From contig DSCO01000022.1 of assembly GCA_011049045.1 (NCBI GenBank), positions 1,260-65,259 of the forward strand: DNA of 64,000 nt. The letters run 5' to 3'. The notes below the pieces were generated by a model that worked only from the letters and a program-made list of their open reading frames with translations, had not been told where the DNA came from and did no database searches. This DNA is from Methanomicrobia archaeon. GTDB lineage: Archaea; Halobacteriota; Syntropharchaeia; Alkanophagales; Methanospirareceae. The position numbers and the translations under genes were made by a program. Shown here one piece after another: positions 9,440-61,489 of this stretch (positions are counted from its first letter, which is position 1; every line of letters begins with the position of its first letter).

Positions 9440-10060
9440 ATGAAACCCGCCAAGCATGAATACGAACGCATCCTCGAATTTCTCATCAAAAACGGCTCAG
9501 CCAGCAAATATGGGATCGCAAAAGAGACCGCTATTCCCTATCCCACCGTGTTGCGGAAACTTCCCGTGATGGCGCGCGCGCATCTCGTCCAGAAGATCGG
9601 GGTGGGGAAGCGCGGCGCGGAGATCTATGTGGCAACGCCGAAAGGGACGCTCATCGCGTACTTCAGTGGCCGGGTAGCAATCGCAGAACTCTTTCTGGCA
9701 CTACCCGGGATCATGAGACACGTGCAGATCTCATTTGATGATCTCCCTGCGGTGAAGAACCCGCTGGGGTTTCTTATTGGTGGCTTGCCCTTCACGCTCG
9801 CGAATCTGGAGGACTTGAAGCCCGAGGAGGCCGTGAGTATCCTGGGCGCGATTCTGATCTGGCGGCACGACGAGTGGTATCACGAGATTGGCGAGCGCGA
9901 GCTGGTGCAGTTGCTGTCATGGGACGAGAACTACCAGCTCTTGCGGTTCCTCGTTGCGGGCTCCGTGAACACGCTCAGCAGGATGAGCGAGCAGGCGCAG
10001 CAATTGAGCGCGCGCGCAAGCGTTTTCTTGTCGAAGCTGGATGAGCTTGCGGATCAATAA
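9440..10060 (+). CDS. winged-helix DNA-binding protein, function unknown
   Basis: N-terminal YERILEFLIKNGSASKYGIAKETAIPYPTVLRKL looks like a wHTH. Confidence 0.5.
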   Translation: MKPAKHEYERILEFLIKNGSASKYGIAKETAIPYPTVLRKLPVMARAHLVQKIGVGKRGAEIYVATPKGTLIAYFSGRVAIAELFLALPGIMRHVQISFDDLPAVKNPLGFLIGGLPFTLANLEDLKPEEAVSILGAILIWRHDEWYHEIGERELVQLLSWDENYQLLRFLVAGSVNTLSRMSEQAQQLSARASVFLSKLDELADQ

Positions 10061-47028: not shown

Positions 47029-47103
47029 GCTCCGCTGGTGTAGTTCGGCCAAGCATAAGGGCCTCTCGAGCCCTTGACCGGGGTTCAAATCCCCGGCGGA
47101 GCA
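47029..47103 (+). tRNA. tRNA-Glu (anticodon CUC)
   Basis: Hand-folded cloverleaf: acceptor GCTCCGC/GCGGAGC, anticodon stem AGGGC/GCCCT with loop CT-CTC-GA, T arm CGGGG-TTCAAAT-CCCCG, discriminator A. No encoded CCA. Confidence 0.9.
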
Positions 47104-55476: not shown

Positions 55477-56268
55477 ATGGTGCCGTACGTATTGCGCGCA
55501 CCGCAGGGGCTGTTTACCGTGCCTTCAGTGAGCTCACATTCCGAGGAAGCGAAGCCGCCCGCGCATCGCGGACGCAGCGGGGCAGCACAGTCAAGAGCAC
55601 GCATATCCACCGGTCTGCCGCGGCTCGATCCGATCTTGGGCGGCTTCAAAGCGGGCACCGTGAGCCTGATTGAGGGCAACCATCCCCTCATCTCCGAGGC
55701 GCTCTCGCTGCTCGCCATCAATGCGGTCACGCACTTGGAAAAATCGGTCGTGTACGTGGACGGCGGTAATTCCATTGATCCTTACCTCATTGCGACGCTC
55801 GCCAAACGGTCAGGGGTAAAACCAGCTCAGGTGCTACAGCAGATCCTGGTTGCACGGGCGTTCACCGCGTATCAACTGGACACCATCATCTCTGATCGGC
55901 TCGAAGCGGTGCTCGATCAGGCAGAGCTAGGCCTGCTGATCGTTGCTCGCATTACAGATCTCTTCCTGGATCGGGCGGTGGCAGAGAAGGAGGCACTCGC
56001 CATGTTGAGCCGATGCGTTGCGCGCATCGAAACGAGCACTCACGATCGAGCGCTGATCACCGTGGTCACGAAGCGGCGACGAACGCCTTCATCGCGCGCG
56101 CTGGCGTTCGATGAGATCCTCGCGAAGCTCCCGGAAGACCGGATCAGCGTAGAACGCAGGAGGAAGGGCGTCAGGCTGCACCAGCACACGCGCGATATCA
56201 TCATGGACTACGTGCCGCTTTCGATCTATCAAACGACCCTGGATGAGTTCATAGGCGGTGGTACGTGA
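55477..56268 (+). CDS. RadB/RecA-fold protein lacking Walker A and Walker B residues
   Basis: ISTGLPRLDPILGGFKAGTVSLIEGNHPLISEAL...VVYVDGGNSIDP...LLIVARITDLF is colinear with RadB. The P-loop GxxGxGKT is replaced by GNHPLISE, and the Walker B Asp by Ala. Confidence 0.65.
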   Translation: MVPYVLRAPQGLFTVPSVSSHSEEAKPPAHRGRSGAAQSRARISTGLPRLDPILGGFKAGTVSLIEGNHPLISEALSLLAINAVTHLEKSVVYVDGGNSIDPYLIATLAKRSGVKPAQVLQQILVARAFTAYQLDTIISDRLEAVLDQAELGLLIVARITDLFLDRAVAEKEALAMLSRCVARIETSTHDRALITVVTKRRRTPSSRALAFDEILAKLPEDRISVERRRKGVRLHQHTRDIIMDYVPLSIYQTTLDEFIGGGT

Positions 56269-56548
56269 GATGGGTAGGACGGTCCGCACCTATCGGACGG
56301 TGCTGGAGGAGTTGATCGCCGACTGGGAACGGTTTCGGAAAGCGCTGCGGAAAGAGGATCGGGAAGCGTTCGATCGCCTGATGGCGAAAGCGCGCACACA
56401 TGCCAGTGCGGCCAGCTACGACGCACGCGTTGACCCCAGCGAATCGCTCTTCATGTCTATTCTGGTGGAGCTGGAACGCGAGCTCGAGGCGCTCAGAGCG
56501 AAGGTCGCGGAGCTTGAGCAGCAGCAGAAGGAGGAGCAAGAGCAGTGA
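56258..56548 (+). CDS. small helical/coiled-coil protein
   Basis: 96-aa ORF overlapping both neighbours, with a C-terminal ELERELEALRAKVAELEQQQKEEQEQ. Confidence 0.5.
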   Translation: MVREMGRTVRTYRTVLEELIADWERFRKALRKEDREAFDRLMAKARTHASAASYDARVDPSESLFMSILVELERELEALRAKVAELEQQQKEEQEQ

Positions 56549-58773
56549 ACGGCTGGGTACTCGATGTCGGTGCGGATTATGAGCAGAACTCGATCATGCT
56601 CTGGCTGAAGCAGGAGAGCGGTTTGGTCGAAGCGGTGGAATGCCCCTTCTTACCCTCGCTTTATGTGCACGCGGCGCCGGCGAACTTGCAGGTGCTGGAA
56701 GAGACCTTCGAGGACGAGCCGTTCGTCAATGCATGGGGGTACGAGGAGAAACGTCTGTGGCCGGGCGAGCCTGCGCAGGAGGTATTGCGAATCACGCTCG
56801 CGGAGTACCGGATGCTTATGAAGCTCGCGCGCGAGATCGACGAGATGGGTGATTACTCGCTCTACGAGCTCTTCAACGTGGATCTCAGCATCCCCACGGC
56901 GTTTATGCTGGAGAAGGGCATCGTCCCGATGGCGCAGATCGGACTCAAGAAACAATCAGAGTTCGAGCTGCTCGAAGATCTCACCGCGATTGATTATCCG
57001 GTACCAGAGCTCCGAAGCGTCAGCCTGGAGGGCAAGGTCAACGCTACAAGCACGCAGCACATGGCTGCATGTCCAATATCTGAGCTCTTGCTGGACGGCC
57101 AGCCGGTAGCGGGTCGCACTGAGCGGGATTTGCTCAGCGGACTCATTGAAGCCATCACTGCTAGGGATCCGGACATCATTTACACCCCTAACGGCGACGC
57201 GTTCCTCATCCCGTACCTCATGGAGCGTGCACGGGTCAACGAACTCGATGACTTCTGCCTCGGCCGCGGACGCGACCTTCGGCCGGTGGGGCAGCCGAAG
57301 TCCTATTTCAGCTACGGGCGCGTGATCTACCGGCCACCGAAATGCCGCTTCAACGGCCGGATACACATCGATCAGAGCAGCTCGTTCCTCTTCCGCGAGG
57401 GTGGCCTTCCCGGCCTGATCGAGCTCGCACGATTATCCCGGATTCCGCTGCAATCGGTATCCCGTGTGACACCCGGCACGGTGATCACCGCGATGCAGAT
57501 CGCAGAAGCGTCGCAGGAGAACGTCCTCATCCGCTGGAAGAAGAACGTGCCCGAGGCGTTTAAAGACGCGCAAACGCTCTTCCTCGCTGATCGCGGCGGC
57601 ATGATTTACGATCCCCGCGTGGGCGTCCATGAAGACGTGGTGGAGATCGACTTCACCTCGCTCTATCCAAGCATCATGGTCAAGCATAACATCTCGCCTG
57701 AGACCGTGCTCTGCTCGTGCTGCCCGGATAGCAGCCACCGCGTCCCGATCATTGATTACCCGATCTGCGAGCAGCGGGTGGGGCTGATCCCGCGCGTCCT
57801 GGAGCCGCTGATCGCGCGCAGGAGTGAATACAAGCGACGCGTGAAAGCGAAAAAATGGCAGGATAACTGGGCGATCTATGAGGCACGCAAGAACGTGCTG
57901 AAATGGATCCTCGTTACCTGTTTCGGCTATACCGGTTACAGAAATGCACGGTTCGGACGGATCGAATGCCACGAAGCGATCAATGCGTACGGCAGAGAGC
58001 TTTTGCTCCAGACTGCGCAGATCGCCGAAGAGCGCGGCTACGAGGTGCTCCACGGGATCATCGATTCGCTCTGGTTGAAGGGCGCCGCGCAGAATGCACG
58101 CGACCACGAGCTATTGCGGCAAGCGATCGAGCACGAAACGGGCATGCCGCTGGAGCTCGAAGGCGTGTACCGCTGGGTCGTCTTTCTGGCCCGGAAGTCC
58201 CAGAGCACGGGCGCGCTGAACCGCTATTACGGGCTCTTCGCGGACGGCACGATGAAGATCCGCGGCCTGGAGCTGAGGCGTAGCGATACGCCGCAACTGA
58301 TCAGGAACGCGCAACTGGATCTGCTGAAGGTGATGGCCCGAGCTGATAACGTCGCGGCGCTGTACGAGCTCATGCCTGACGTGATCGGGGTGCTCCGGAG
58401 GTACGCTGATCGCATCGTGAACGGCGAGTGCGCGTTGGAGGAGCTGGTCTTTACGCCCGTGGTCTCACGCGAGCTCGAGTTCTATTCGCACCTGACCAAC
58501 AGCGCCGCCTGCCTGCTCCAGTTGAAGCGGCGTGGACGTGCCGTGCACCCGGGCGAGCGGATACAGTACATCGTGACTGATGCCGGCTCAGCGCGCATCG
58601 CGAAGAAGGTAAAGGCCTGGGCGCTGGTTGACGGCACGGAACAGTATGATAAGAAGCGCTACGTCCGGCATTTGCTCAGGGCAGCCGAAAGCATCCTCTC
58701 ACCGTTTGGCTATACGGAGCGCAAACTGGCAGAGATCATTAAACCTACAAGACAATTGACGCTTCCGATCTAA
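56545..58773 (+). CDS. polB: family B DNA polymerase, divergent (exonuclease motifs degenerate, motif C variant)
   Basis: Motif A DFTSLYPSI; motif B K..L....FGYTGY; motif C HGIIDS (canonical DTDS); RGLELRRSD. ExoI reads SLE instead of DIE, ExoII reads NGDAFLIPYL (FD to FL), and the ExoIII segment is missing. Confidence 0.9.
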   Translation: MNGWVLDVGADYEQNSIMLWLKQESGLVEAVECPFLPSLYVHAAPANLQVLEETFEDEPFVNAWGYEEKRLWPGEPAQEVLRITLAEYRMLMKLAREIDEMGDYSLYELFNVDLSIPTAFMLEKGIVPMAQIGLKKQSEFELLEDLTAIDYPVPELRSVSLEGKVNATSTQHMAACPISELLLDGQPVAGRTERDLLSGLIEAITARDPDIIYTPNGDAFLIPYLMERARVNELDDFCLGRGRDLRPVGQPKSYFSYGRVIYRPPKCRFNGRIHIDQSSSFLFREGGLPGLIELARLSRIPLQSVSRVTPGTVITAMQIAEASQENVLIRWKKNVPEAFKDAQTLFLADRGGMIYDPRVGVHEDVVEIDFTSLYPSIMVKHNISPETVLCSCCPDSSHRVPIIDYPICEQRVGLIPRVLEPLIARRSEYKRRVKAKKWQDNWAIYEARKNVLKWILVTCFGYTGYRNARFGRIECHEAINAYGRELLLQTAQIAEERGYEVLHGIIDSLWLKGAAQNARDHELLRQAIEHETGMPLELEGVYRWVVFLARKSQSTGALNRYYGLFADGTMKIRGLELRRSDTPQLIRNAQLDLLKVMARADNVAALYELMPDVIGVLRRYADRIVNGECALEELVFTPVVSRELEFYSHLTNSAACLLQLKRRGRAVHPGERIQYIVTDAGSARIAKKVKAWALVDGTEQYDKKRYVRHLLRAAESILSPFGYTERKLAEIIKPTRQLTLPI

Positions 58774-58853: not shown

Positions 58854-59117
58854 TTACTTTGCGACGAGCCCCTCAAAGGTCTTCGCTACGTCGCCCAGTA
58901 GCTTCTTCTCCTCTGTACTCAGGTTCGGTGATACCTGCAAACCCTTCAACACGCCGATTGCCTCAATGGTCTTAGTGATCTGCGCTGCAGGTGCTACCTT
59001 CTCAGCTGCTTTCTTTGCTCGCTTCGTTGCTCGCTTGTGATTCATCCTCACATGCCGTGCTAATTCCAGGGGTGTTCCAAACTTCTCACCACAATATTTG
59101 CATTTATATTCTGCCAT
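58854..59117 (-). CDS. C2H2 zinc-finger protein
   Basis: YKCKYCGEKFGTPLELARHVRMNH. A TATA-like atttatata lies upstream. Confidence 0.65.
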   Translation of the reverse strand: MAEYKCKYCGEKFGTPLELARHVRMNHKRATKRAKKAAEKVAPAAQITKTIEAIGVLKGLQVSPNLSTEEKKLLGDVAKTFEGLVAK

Positions 59118-59410
59118 AATAGCACTACATAAGTCAAGGCTATATAAATATTATTGACATTTATCTCACATCGATGTCTGTAACCACACGGGAGAGTTAA
59201 GTAAGAGATGCATATTGCATCCCGTGTTATGTGCACCTTAACAGTTCCCTTACTCACTTCGTTCGCCCCAACCTAACAGCATGAGTGCACGATCGTTATG
59301 GGCCTCATGGGCGTGGTGCCCGTGCTAATCCTCATGGGGTGGGTTCACAGGCGCTAACCTCGCTGCTACTGTGAAGAAAAATGCCGATTGCAAAAGGGGA
59401 ACACTGAGCC

Positions 59411-59521
59411 GCAAGAGCTGGTCGTTCTAAAATCCGAGATTTTACCCCTAAGAAGTTTCTGCCTGTGGTACGTGCTCCGAAGGGCAGAAACATCTTTAGC
59501 GGTCGCCCGACCAGCTCTTGC
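59411..59521. ncRNA. candidate structured RNA (or DNA cruciform): three-way junction closed by a perfect 14-bp helix
   Basis: gcaagagctggtcg (59411..59424) pairs with cgaccagctcttgc (59508..59521). Inner hairpins are 59428..59444 (7 bp, triloop) and 59451..59495 (9 bp + 3 bp around one A-A mismatch). No ORF of 60 aa or more on either strand. Confidence 0.3.
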
Positions 59522-59713
59522 TTTGATTTGAGCAGGGCATGTTCAATCCGTTTGATCGAGCGAAGGAGAAACCTTCACTCTTCCCGTTGAATTTAGGACG
59601 AGAGACTCCGCTCTCGTGCTCTCGGTAAAACAAAAAAATTAGAGGGGAAGAAGAAGGGGGGTGGAGGAGGCGGATAAGGCGGCGAAGAAGAAGAAAGAAG
59701 AGGAGAAGAAAAA

Positions 59714-60031
59714 ATGAGAAGAATGAAGTTTGTAGTAAGGAAAGTGAAGGAGTGTTTGGTGAGGGAAGGTGTGGTTTTTAGTGTGAGAAAGTGGGGTGGT
59801 ATTGGAAAGTGTAGTGAAGTGATAGTTGAAGATGTGGGAGTTTGTGAGAAGAGATGTGTAAGGTGGATTGAGAGTAAGGAGGAGTTAAAGGAGTTTGTGG
59901 GGTTGAGTGGGTTGAGAAGTGTGGATGAATGGTGGAGGTGGTGTGAGAAGTTTGGATGTAATAAAGGTGGATGGTTGTGGGAAGTGAAGGTTGTGAAGAG
60001 AATGAAAGGGGGTTTGGAGTTATGGATGTGA
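59714..60031 (+). CDS. 105-aa protein encoded entirely by cytosine-free codons, function unknown
   Basis: ATG preceded by a polypurine/GGAGG-rich leader. There are no in-frame stops although all three stop codons are C-free and are frequent in the other two frames. All Arg codons are AGA/AGG. No Ala, Pro, Thr, His or Gln. Confidence 0.7.
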   Translation: MRRMKFVVRKVKECLVREGVVFSVRKWGGIGKCSEVIVEDVGVCEKRCVRWIESKEELKEFVGLSGLRSVDEWWRWCEKFGCNKGGWLWEVKVVKRMKGGLELWM

Positions 60032-60056
60032 AAAAGGTCCTGCGACGGTGGAGAAT

Positions 60057-60075
60057 CCGACGGTGGGACCGTCGG
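60057..60075 (+). other. GC-rich hairpin 26 nt downstream of the cytosine-free ORF
   Basis: ccgacgg-tggga-ccgtcgg (7-bp stem). Preceded by a direct repeat of cgacggtgg at 60043. Confidence 0.4.
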
Positions 60076-60202
60076 AGGTTAATGATTCTGGAAGAGCTCC
60101 TGGGGGGAGTGAGGACCTGTGGAGGTGTGTAATATGATTTATGATCCCTGGCATAGGCCTGCAACCGGGATCGAATCCTGGAGGGATCACAGGAGGAATG
60201 AA

Positions 60203-61021: not shown

Positions 61022-61489
61022 GTGAAGAAAGTACAGTGCAGGCTTGCGCCGCAAGCTGGAACCGGCTCCGCGATCGACCGCAAGCGCAGAAAGGCAGCGC
61101 GCGCGAAATTTGCCGGAAATTTGGTGGCATTGGCGACGCCGCCCATCTCGCCGCACTCCCCGCGCCCGTGCGTTCGCAATCCTTCTGGCAACTTCGAGCT
61201 CGTGCTGCGTGAACGGCAACAGGCGGCTAAGGTCACCGTGCCCCACAAACTCGTCTGGCATAGCACGCCGAAGGTCGCCCGCATACAGGCGATCGAGCCC
61301 TATTATTCCAACGGGCAGCTGCTCTTCCTCGATACCTGGAACCGTGATTATCCCGAGCTCGTGGAGCAGCTGATCCCCTACCCGCTTGCAGCGCATGACG
61401 ACGGGCCTGATGCGCTCGCCGGCGCTATCGCGCTGATTCTTGCGAATGAGAAGGCGCAAAGGCAGGTGCTTATTCCGCGTGCGCGATAG
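61022..61489 (+). pseudogene. C-terminal fragment of a terminase large subunit (nuclease domain end)
   Basis: VARIQAIEPYYSNGQLLFLD...LIPYPLAAHDDGPDALAGAIALI matches the conserved terminase C-terminal block (..HDD..DAL..A). The ATPase and most of the nuclease domain are absent. Confidence 0.55.

Follow-up and report, generated by a model that had tools for sequence, protein, structure and literature searches.

The longest gap between open reading frames in the window, by which we mean the whole 64-kb stretch of DNA that was analysed, lies between a divergent C2H2 zinc-finger gene and a gene on the plus strand that contains no cytosine at all (hereafter the C-free gene). The original prediction had placed about 440 bp without ORFs at 59260-59700, and we found that 59258-59713, a gap of 456 nt, is free of ORFs of at least 60 aa on both strands; ORFs of this size cover 94.7% of the window, and the runner-up among the gaps measures 281 nt. 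To the left of the zinc-finger gene lie genes for a family B DNA polymerase, a DUF8156 protein, a Rad51-like protein, and an ArsR-type HTH protein. To the right of the tract, the C-free gene is followed by small ORFs and a C-terminal fragment of TerL, with a truncated phage-type integrase beyond the window. The TerL ORF matches only the C-terminal nuclease part of the terminase (positions 625-713 of the 760 in the phrog_38 profile), and this gene fragment indicates that the block is degraded. The GC content drops from a tRNA-Glu at 47029 onward, the only RNA that ARAGORN found, and a search for a tRNA-derived att repeat bounding the block returned no convincing direct repeat. Database names of the zinc-finger protein point to a host of the Methanomicrobia/Methanospirareceae/Methanophagales (ANME-1-like), and the block itself consists of degraded, mosaic DNA that derives from viruses or plasmids. 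Within it, the tract appears to be the control region between the zinc-finger and C-free genes of a decaying integrated archaeal virus or mobile element (Table 1).

In the lineage of the window, the Rad51-like ATPase, the DUF8156 protein, and the 742-aa family B DNA polymerase form a cluster at 55477-58773. The sister element L005 has only the DUF8156 counterpart of this cluster, and the HTH, DUF8156, and zinc-finger genes are adjacent there. Since most of the cluster is missing from L005, the polymerase and the Rad51-like gene look like a cassette that was gained or lost. The left border of the intergenic control region is formed by the TTTATATA box, which we assign as a putative TATA element of the zinc-finger gene from the archaeal promoter consensus, and the promoter block of this gene is conserved beside its homologues in L005, L155, and L156-L163.

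Table 1. Coordinates of the features in and around the gene-free tract, and of related modules in other loci (roles called putative are predictions).
Feature	Position	Strand	Details
Divergent C2H2 zinc-finger gene	58854-59117	minus	zf-C2H2 match
TTTATATA box, putative TATA of the zinc-finger gene	59141-59148	minus	perfect; 24 nt from the ATG
Element R, left part	59196-59304	plus	88% identical to L005 2801-2909; cut off at 59304 in the window
Filler	59305-59392	none	holds the 19-codon mini-ORF and two CCTCATGGG repeats; non-conserved
Three-way-junction module	59393-59524	none	18-nt single-stranded 5' flank AAAGGGGAACACTGAGCC plus nested P1, P2, and P3
P1	59411-59424/59508-59521		14 bp, perfect pairing
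P2	59428-59434/59438-59444		3-nt loop
P3	59445-59503		core 59455-59464/59482-59491
AGCAGNGCAT(CC) motif copy	59531-59540	plus	AGCAGGGCAT; single intergenic copy in the window, by motif scan
Invariant block, putative operator	59595-59624	plus	AGGACGAGAGAC-N2-3-CGCTCTCGTGCTCTCG; 7-bp palindrome, variable centre, third CTCTCG half-site
A-rich box, putative BRE/TATA of the C-free gene	59626-59641	plus	TAAAACAAAAAAATTA; C-poor tract starts here
Leader	59642-59713	plus	purine-rich, nearly C-free (3 C), GGAGG repeats, ahead of the ATG
Cytosine-free gene	59714-60031	plus	105 aa; 0 C in 318 nt
TerL C-terminal fragment	61022-61489		155-aa ORF; phrog_38, 9.5e-16
Element R copies in relatives	L005 2801-2990, 7720-7852; L009 1535-1701, 2846-2991; L010 1910-2023; L012 4884-5005; L125 2574-2641		
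Second hairpin family in relatives	L155 (minus) ~1990-2250; L005 3505-3560; L123 85-170; L124 135-220; L009 3578-3640, 3749-3811		

We compared the tract with about 30 related loci, which were reached through relatives of the C-free protein and homologues of the zinc-finger protein. The tract is a composite of six parts, and element R, the filler, the junction, the AGCAG motif, and the palindrome are each distributed differently among the loci. Judged by this comparison, the tract is a mosaic of modules and not a single RNA. The 454-nt tract as a whole folds moderately better than its shuffles (z -2.8). An Rfam search of the whole window at the gathering threshold returned the tRNA-Glu alone, the same search of eight related loci at E<=0.1 gave no match, and no phage or plasmid record matched the tract by BLAST.

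The leftmost module belongs to element R, which is non-coding, spans about 190 nt when complete in the relatives, is conserved in all lineages, and has little consensus structure. Two copies each were found in L005 and L009, and further copies in L007, L155, L164, L166, L167, L010, L012, and L125-127. Relative to the C-free gene, element R is found upstream in some lineages and 1-1.4 kb downstream in others, and two copies bracket a 4.9-kb gene block in L005. It looks like a recombination or boundary site. The filler that follows it gave no BLAST match in any related locus, and at its position L005 carries about 750 nt of other hairpin modules (L005 2909-3659). Two features had been pointed out in this part of the tract, the CCTCATGGG direct repeats and a 19-codon mini-ORF (59298-59357); both exist, but the stretch around them has no counterpart in the closest relative, L005.

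Other small modules recur around the C-free gene in the related loci. A second family of hairpin modules, built as GCGGTCGTAGTTTTAAT-ACC...GGT-TTAAAACCACGAGTTTTn, is present in one or two copies per locus; it has a conserved base with an A-C mismatch (G-U on the minus strand), a distal stem that varies with compensatory changes, and an apical insert of 4-27 nt. The AGCAGNGCAT(CC) motif occurs three times in L005, three times in L155, twice in L123/L124, and once in the intergenic part of the window, and the copies of the relatives each precede a hairpin module (L005 3799-3833; L155 intergenic positions 497, 639, and 856). The array is iteron-like or resembles repeated binding sites. Eleven independent metagenome contigs (L004, L006, L008, L010, L011, and L122-L127) have their ends 130-850 nt ahead of the C-free gene, at positions that differ even within one lineage. 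These ends suggest assembly breaks in a hypervariable, hairpin-rich region and not a fixed genome end; a fixed genome terminus upstream of the C-free gene was rejected, the contigs of one lineage starting 467, 793, and 851 nt away from it.

For the three-way-junction module, the fold that had been predicted is borne out. P1, whose arms are GCAAGAGCTGGTCG and CGACCAGCTCTTGC, had been described as a perfect 14-bp helix and pairs without a mismatch; among perfect inverted repeats with a loop of at most 120 nt, no other in the 64 kb reaches 12 bp. Folding 59400-59530 to its MFE gives the proposed three-way junction, in which a triloop hairpin and a second hairpin lie inside this helix. With RNA parameters, this segment reaches -54.3 kcal/mol on the plus strand (z -6.2) and -56.1 kcal/mol on the minus strand (z -6.0), and with DNA parameters it reaches -30.6 kcal/mol (z -6.7). 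None of 200 shuffles was as stable, and the junction ranks as the most stable among 3194 GC-corrected windows of 131 nt. Watson-Crick pairs make up 38 of the 39 predicted pairs, and the single U-G pair is a wobble on the plus strand alone. A covariance-model scan of 58900-60200 against Rfam (E<=10) found no family that matches the junction, the best score being 14.6 bits, against a threshold of 43, for an unrelated Burkholderia sRNA; the junction thus falls into none of the Rfam families, hammerhead, twister, pRNA, riboswitches, and archaeal sRNAs included.

Elsewhere in the window, the 14-nt P1 arm has five near-matches with at most two mismatches, where 0.73 would be expected. They lie at 9927-9949 (minus strand), 28156, 28857, 33970, and 44235, and the first extends to a match of 21/23 nt within a 206-aa host ORF. 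These near-matches probably reflect codon-usage bias (QELV-type words) or chance, the other reading being an antisense target.

The junction module recurs in one other lineage only, L005/L014, in which the C-free protein is 95% identical to that of the window. Over 152 nt, the L005 module shares 85% identity with that of the window, the non-coding DNA that flanks it cannot be aligned on either side, and the homologue (L005 3659-3806) folds alone into the same architecture with a z-score of -4.0. Between the two copies, 2 of the 74 paired columns have changed compared with 17 of 40 unpaired ones (Fisher p 1.2e-7), the unpaired class also including unmodelled P1 columns and the L005 mismatch. 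Both changed paired columns belong to one compensatory change in P1, from T-A to G-C, and P1 also differs by one inserted pair, with a G added to its 5' arm and a C to its 3' arm; the L005 junction contains one C-C mismatch. The stems of the internal hairpins are 100% conserved and their loops about 50% diverged, and the two copies also share the single-stranded junction nucleotides TTC and TCGCC and the 18-nt 5' flank. Conservation and covariation of the paired positions, by which the original prediction was to be judged, therefore both exist, but they come from one other lineage, as one compensatory pair and one paired insertion, and the covariation rests on two independent junction sequences. 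That complementarity has been kept between arms 83 nt apart speaks for a real intramolecular pairing and against two protein half-sites.

A coding role for the junction was rejected, as the two copies are separated by frame-breaking indels of +1, +1, -1, and +1. To find spurious ORF calls over other copies, the translated junction was searched twice against protein databases; the first search gave nothing, and a 779-aa tandem-repeat protein that came up in the second, with weak matches summed over 10 stretches at 34% identity, was judged spurious.

The search for the junction in other contigs yielded the second copy in L005/L014 and none in the remaining loci or in scans of IMG/VR. A covariance model built from the two copies found no further copy in 30 loci and the window, and pattern scans of IMG/VR with the P3 hairpin and two conserved 16-mers gave chance matches of at most 21 nt, none of which extended. 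L155, L123, L124, L006-9, and more distant lineages have no junction at the orthologous place. In its place, L155, L123, L124, and L006-9 carry different long hairpins with compensatory changes of their own, and relative to L155 and L124 the junction is a clean indel. Among the loci reached through zinc-finger homologues, the chromosomal ones (L156-163) contain neither element R nor the junction, and the element loci (L155 and L164-167) contain element R and no junction. On these alignments, the junction is an accessory unit that appears to have been gained or lost whole between related elements. The element is real, narrowly distributed, of unusual stability, and maintained by selection, and the putative promoter region around it, though a mosaic, is otherwise ordinary.

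Between the junction and the C-free gene, we found both of the features that had been predicted downstream, namely the CGAGAG-ACTCCG-CTCTCG arrangement with an extra CTCTCGG and the A-rich tract that follows the CTCTCG copies. The arrangement takes the form of a palindrome, ACGAGAG-N6-CTCTCGT, at 59598-59617 with a third CTCTCG at 59619-59624. The block that contains it has 31 invariant columns in the window, L122, L123, L124, L155, L006, and L007, with variable flanks; the palindrome occurs once in the window against 0.02 occurrences expected, and its centre varies, being 6-7 nt long among the loci. An invariant palindrome with an extra half-site beside a promoter box is the classic layout of an operator. 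Similar A/T boxes stand at the same place in L122, L124, L125-127, and L011/L012, and in L122 and L124, as in the window, the palindrome directly adjoins the box. In archaeal promoters, the TATA/BRE stands about 25 nt ahead of the transcription start. The segment 59595-59641 shares with an archaeal BRE/TATA promoter and operator the invariant 7-bp inverted repeat, the extra half-site, and the adjoining A/T-rich box, and divergent regulator-type genes (C2H2 zinc finger and ArsR-type HTH) lie nearby. It is unlike such a promoter in that some lineages keep the palindrome without an obvious A/T-rich box. Because of these lineages, and because L005 keeps the junction but lacks the ACGAGAG palindrome, with a different palindrome (CGGAA-N9-TTCCG) instead, the promoter model is not uniform.

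The absence of cytosine reaches beyond the coding sequence. The C-free run extends over 59684-60038, and only three C occur from 59632 onward. Homologues of the C-free protein at 70-95% identity are all encoded with 0-3 cytosines, and the protein has an ASCH-like fold. In every lineage, an A/T-rich box or hairpin immediately precedes the C-free tract, which starts 40-80 nt ahead of the ATG and runs on for 5-25 nt past the stop codon. With such bounds in all lineages, the cytosine-lacking unit looks like a transcript, and the start of the tract points to an mRNA that would begin downstream of about 59626, leaving the junction and the CGAGAG/CTCTCG elements outside it. We infer that the C-free gene has its promoter, operator, and leader in 59595-59713, all three roles being predicted from the sequence. 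Three half-sites of the CTCTCG type would be bound by a dimeric or tetrameric regulator, an A-rich BRE/TATA-like box would stand next to this operator with a purine-only leader after it, and transcription would start downstream of the A-rich box, which would be why the C-free tract begins there. Searches with the C-free protein gave no match in phage and plasmid collections and no relatives in IMG/VR, and a literature search on cytosine-free viral genes found nothing relevant.

Our preferred reading of the tract, to which we assign a probability of roughly 45%, is that it consists of this promoter, operator, and leader side together with a separate accessory junction that acts as a folded single-stranded nucleic acid. 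In this proposal, the junction would be an accessory module outside the mRNA of the C-free gene and would work as an intramolecularly folded single strand. Its nested palindrome would extrude or fold when the element becomes single-stranded, during replication, transfer, or packaging, and would be held perfect by selection, by hairpin-templated correction, or by both. We slightly favour action at the DNA level over an untranslated RNA because 38 of the 39 pairs are Watson-Crick, because both strands fold equally well and the DNA parameters give a z-score as low as -6.7, because the module is neither flanked by an A/T-rich promoter box common to both lineages nor followed by oligo-T, and because no Rfam family comes near it. 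Hairpin-templated repair, known as quasipalindrome correction, can keep palindromes perfect without selection at the RNA level. On the other hand, the conserved TTC and TCGCC, the conserved 18-nt flank, and a U-G wobble that is confined to the plus strand are just as typical of a folded RNA and favour that form. The copy in the window sits in a degraded element and may have lost its function.

By analogy, the junction would be most like the folded single-stranded DNA sites or the structured small RNAs of phage and plasmid control regions. Folded single-stranded DNA sites include origins of the ssi/sso type, primosome assembly hairpins, and the single-strand promoters of plasmid leading regions; no such sites are known from archaea. 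The junction shares with them nested near-perfect hairpins, a gene-free tract, a position at a module boundary of a mobile element, and equal folding of both strands, and the sister element L005 encodes the ssDNA-binding anti-restriction protein ArdC. It differs from them in that its loops are variable and contain no conserved motif such as a nick site or a CS-6-type box, in that no rolling-circle Rep or relaxase was seen nearby, and in that it has no sequence similarity to phage and plasmid records.

That the junction is instead a stand-alone structured ncRNA, for example a protein-binding scaffold with the plus strand slightly favoured, is possible, but we consider it somewhat unlikely. Such an RNA would account for the very stable three-way fold (z about -6 in the window and -4 in L005), for stems and junction nucleotides that are conserved while the loops vary, for the compensatory pair and the paired insertion, and for indels that exclude coding, and the sole U-G pair is a wobble on the plus strand alone. 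An A-rich GAAGAAAAATG also stands about 30 nt before P1 in the window. The RNA would come from a weak or non-canonical promoter or from processing of a longer transcript. The lack of a conserved promoter box or oligo-T terminator on either strand in the two lineages, the near-absence of G-U among the 39 pairs, the lack of an Rfam relative, the restriction to two lineages while most relatives have no junction, and loop-loop complementarity that is not conserved all argue against it.

One specific RNA, the phi29-type pRNA, was tried and rejected. The likeness lies in a three-way junction of about 115 nt in a viral block with a family B DNA polymerase and packaging genes, and a pRNA-like RNA has been predicted in Acidianus bottle-shaped virus. 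A pRNA of this type depends on conserved or covarying intermolecular complementarity of two loops, and its genomic partners are a PolB that is protein-primed and a packaging ATPase of the phi29 type. Here, by contrast, no Rfam model matches, packaging is of the terminase type, L005 keeps the junction without PolB, L2 reads CGA in one lineage and UCAC in the other, and the L3 loops have no consistent complement in both lineages.

We regard as doubtful, and as less probable than the stand-alone RNA, that the junction arose as a palindromic insertion, selfish or neutral, which would be either MITE-like or a palindrome kept perfect by template-switch repair and would serve no function for the element. 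Like MITEs and palindromic repeats of the Correia, ERIC, and RUP types and the MITEs of archaea, it is about 110 nt long, folds over its whole length, and is polymorphic for insertion or deletion between relatives at the same place, and a perfect 14-bp repeat lies at the ends of its 111-nt unit. L155 and L124 are empty at this place, and the ends of the indel can be aligned either at GC|...|GC, which coincides with the ends of the 12-14-bp terminal inverted repeat and leaves GC flanking both, or 18 nt further to the left. The virtually pure Watson-Crick pairing is also as expected of an insertion, as are the patchwork surroundings in which other hairpin modules come, go, and duplicate in tandem and the many metagenome contigs that break in this region. 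The 2-bp GC "duplication" is ambiguous, however, GC being self-complementary, and the conserved block extends 18 nt beyond the repeat. The internal stems are as conserved as the termini, which a transposase-recognised MITE would not need. A MITE would also be expected in multiple copies in unrelated contexts; the module is single-copy in the 64 kb, and neither the related loci (about 30, with some 200 kb) nor the IMG/VR pattern scans gave a copy in such a context. An integron attC site was rejected as well. Such sites are imperfect palindromes bounded by RYYYAAC ... GTTRRRY core sites and occur in cassette arrays next to IntI; the P1 arms match no core site, there is no cassette array, and the integrase is a truncated one of phage type.

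An improbable further suggestion is that the junction represents a new structured RNA or folded-DNA site of an ANME-1/Methanomicrobia virus clade that partners the cytosine-free, ASCH-like gene. The structural relatives of the ASCH-like protein act on N4-acetylcytidine. If the suggestion were true, the junction would be a cytidine-bearing substrate, decoy, or assembly scaffold for this protein, and the protein's own mRNA, being free of cytidine, would escape.

Less credible still is the idea that the C-free gene has a long structured 5' leader made up of the junction and the hairpins downstream and acting as a riboregulator or two-state switch; a regulatory leader, as had been proposed, is unlikely for the junction. 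The junction does lie on the same strand, directly upstream and 190 nt from the ATG, the CGAGAG can pair alternatively with two CTCTCG copies, and the pyrimidine-rich palindrome pairs weakly with the purine-rich leader (z -2.3). But the C-free tract is sharply bounded, beginning at 59632/59684 in the window and at the equivalent point, past the A-rich box or hairpin, in all homologues, and a 300-nt leader that contains C would not be expected on a transcript under selection to be free of it. A cis-acting leader or riboswitch would be conserved with the gene that it regulates, whereas most homologues of the C-free gene have no junction ahead of them, and no riboswitch or leader family matches. 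Of the supposed two-state arrangement, the complementary elements themselves are real, with their 31 invariant positions in seven loci, but they lie upstream of the C-free tract and are better read as a DNA operator.

We give hardly any credence to the mini-ORF as a type-I-toxin-like hydrophobic peptide controlled by the adjoining structured RNA, as had also been proposed: a 19-codon hydrophobic ORF does sit beside a stable structure, but it lies in the sole stretch without homology to any related locus, the corresponding ATG in L005 opens an unrelated frame of 12 codons, no ribosome-binding motif or antisense partner is evident, and the conserved hydrophobic ORF with antisense RNA that defines a type I toxin-antitoxin system is missing.

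For the preferred reading, the dissection of the tract shows where the cytosine-free transcript probably has its promoter, its operator, and its 5' boundary. The absence of C would then be a property of the whole transcription unit and extend beyond the ORF, and 59595-59641 would offer concrete sites for the control of this unusual gene. By itself, the junction adds to the unannotated structured elements that selection maintains in archaeal mobile elements; narrowly distributed as it is, it could be used as the seed of a new RNA or DNA-structure family. More broadly, the comparison points to a class of elements with a hypervariable, hairpin-rich non-coding region that exchanges modules, which is probably why metagenome assemblies break there.
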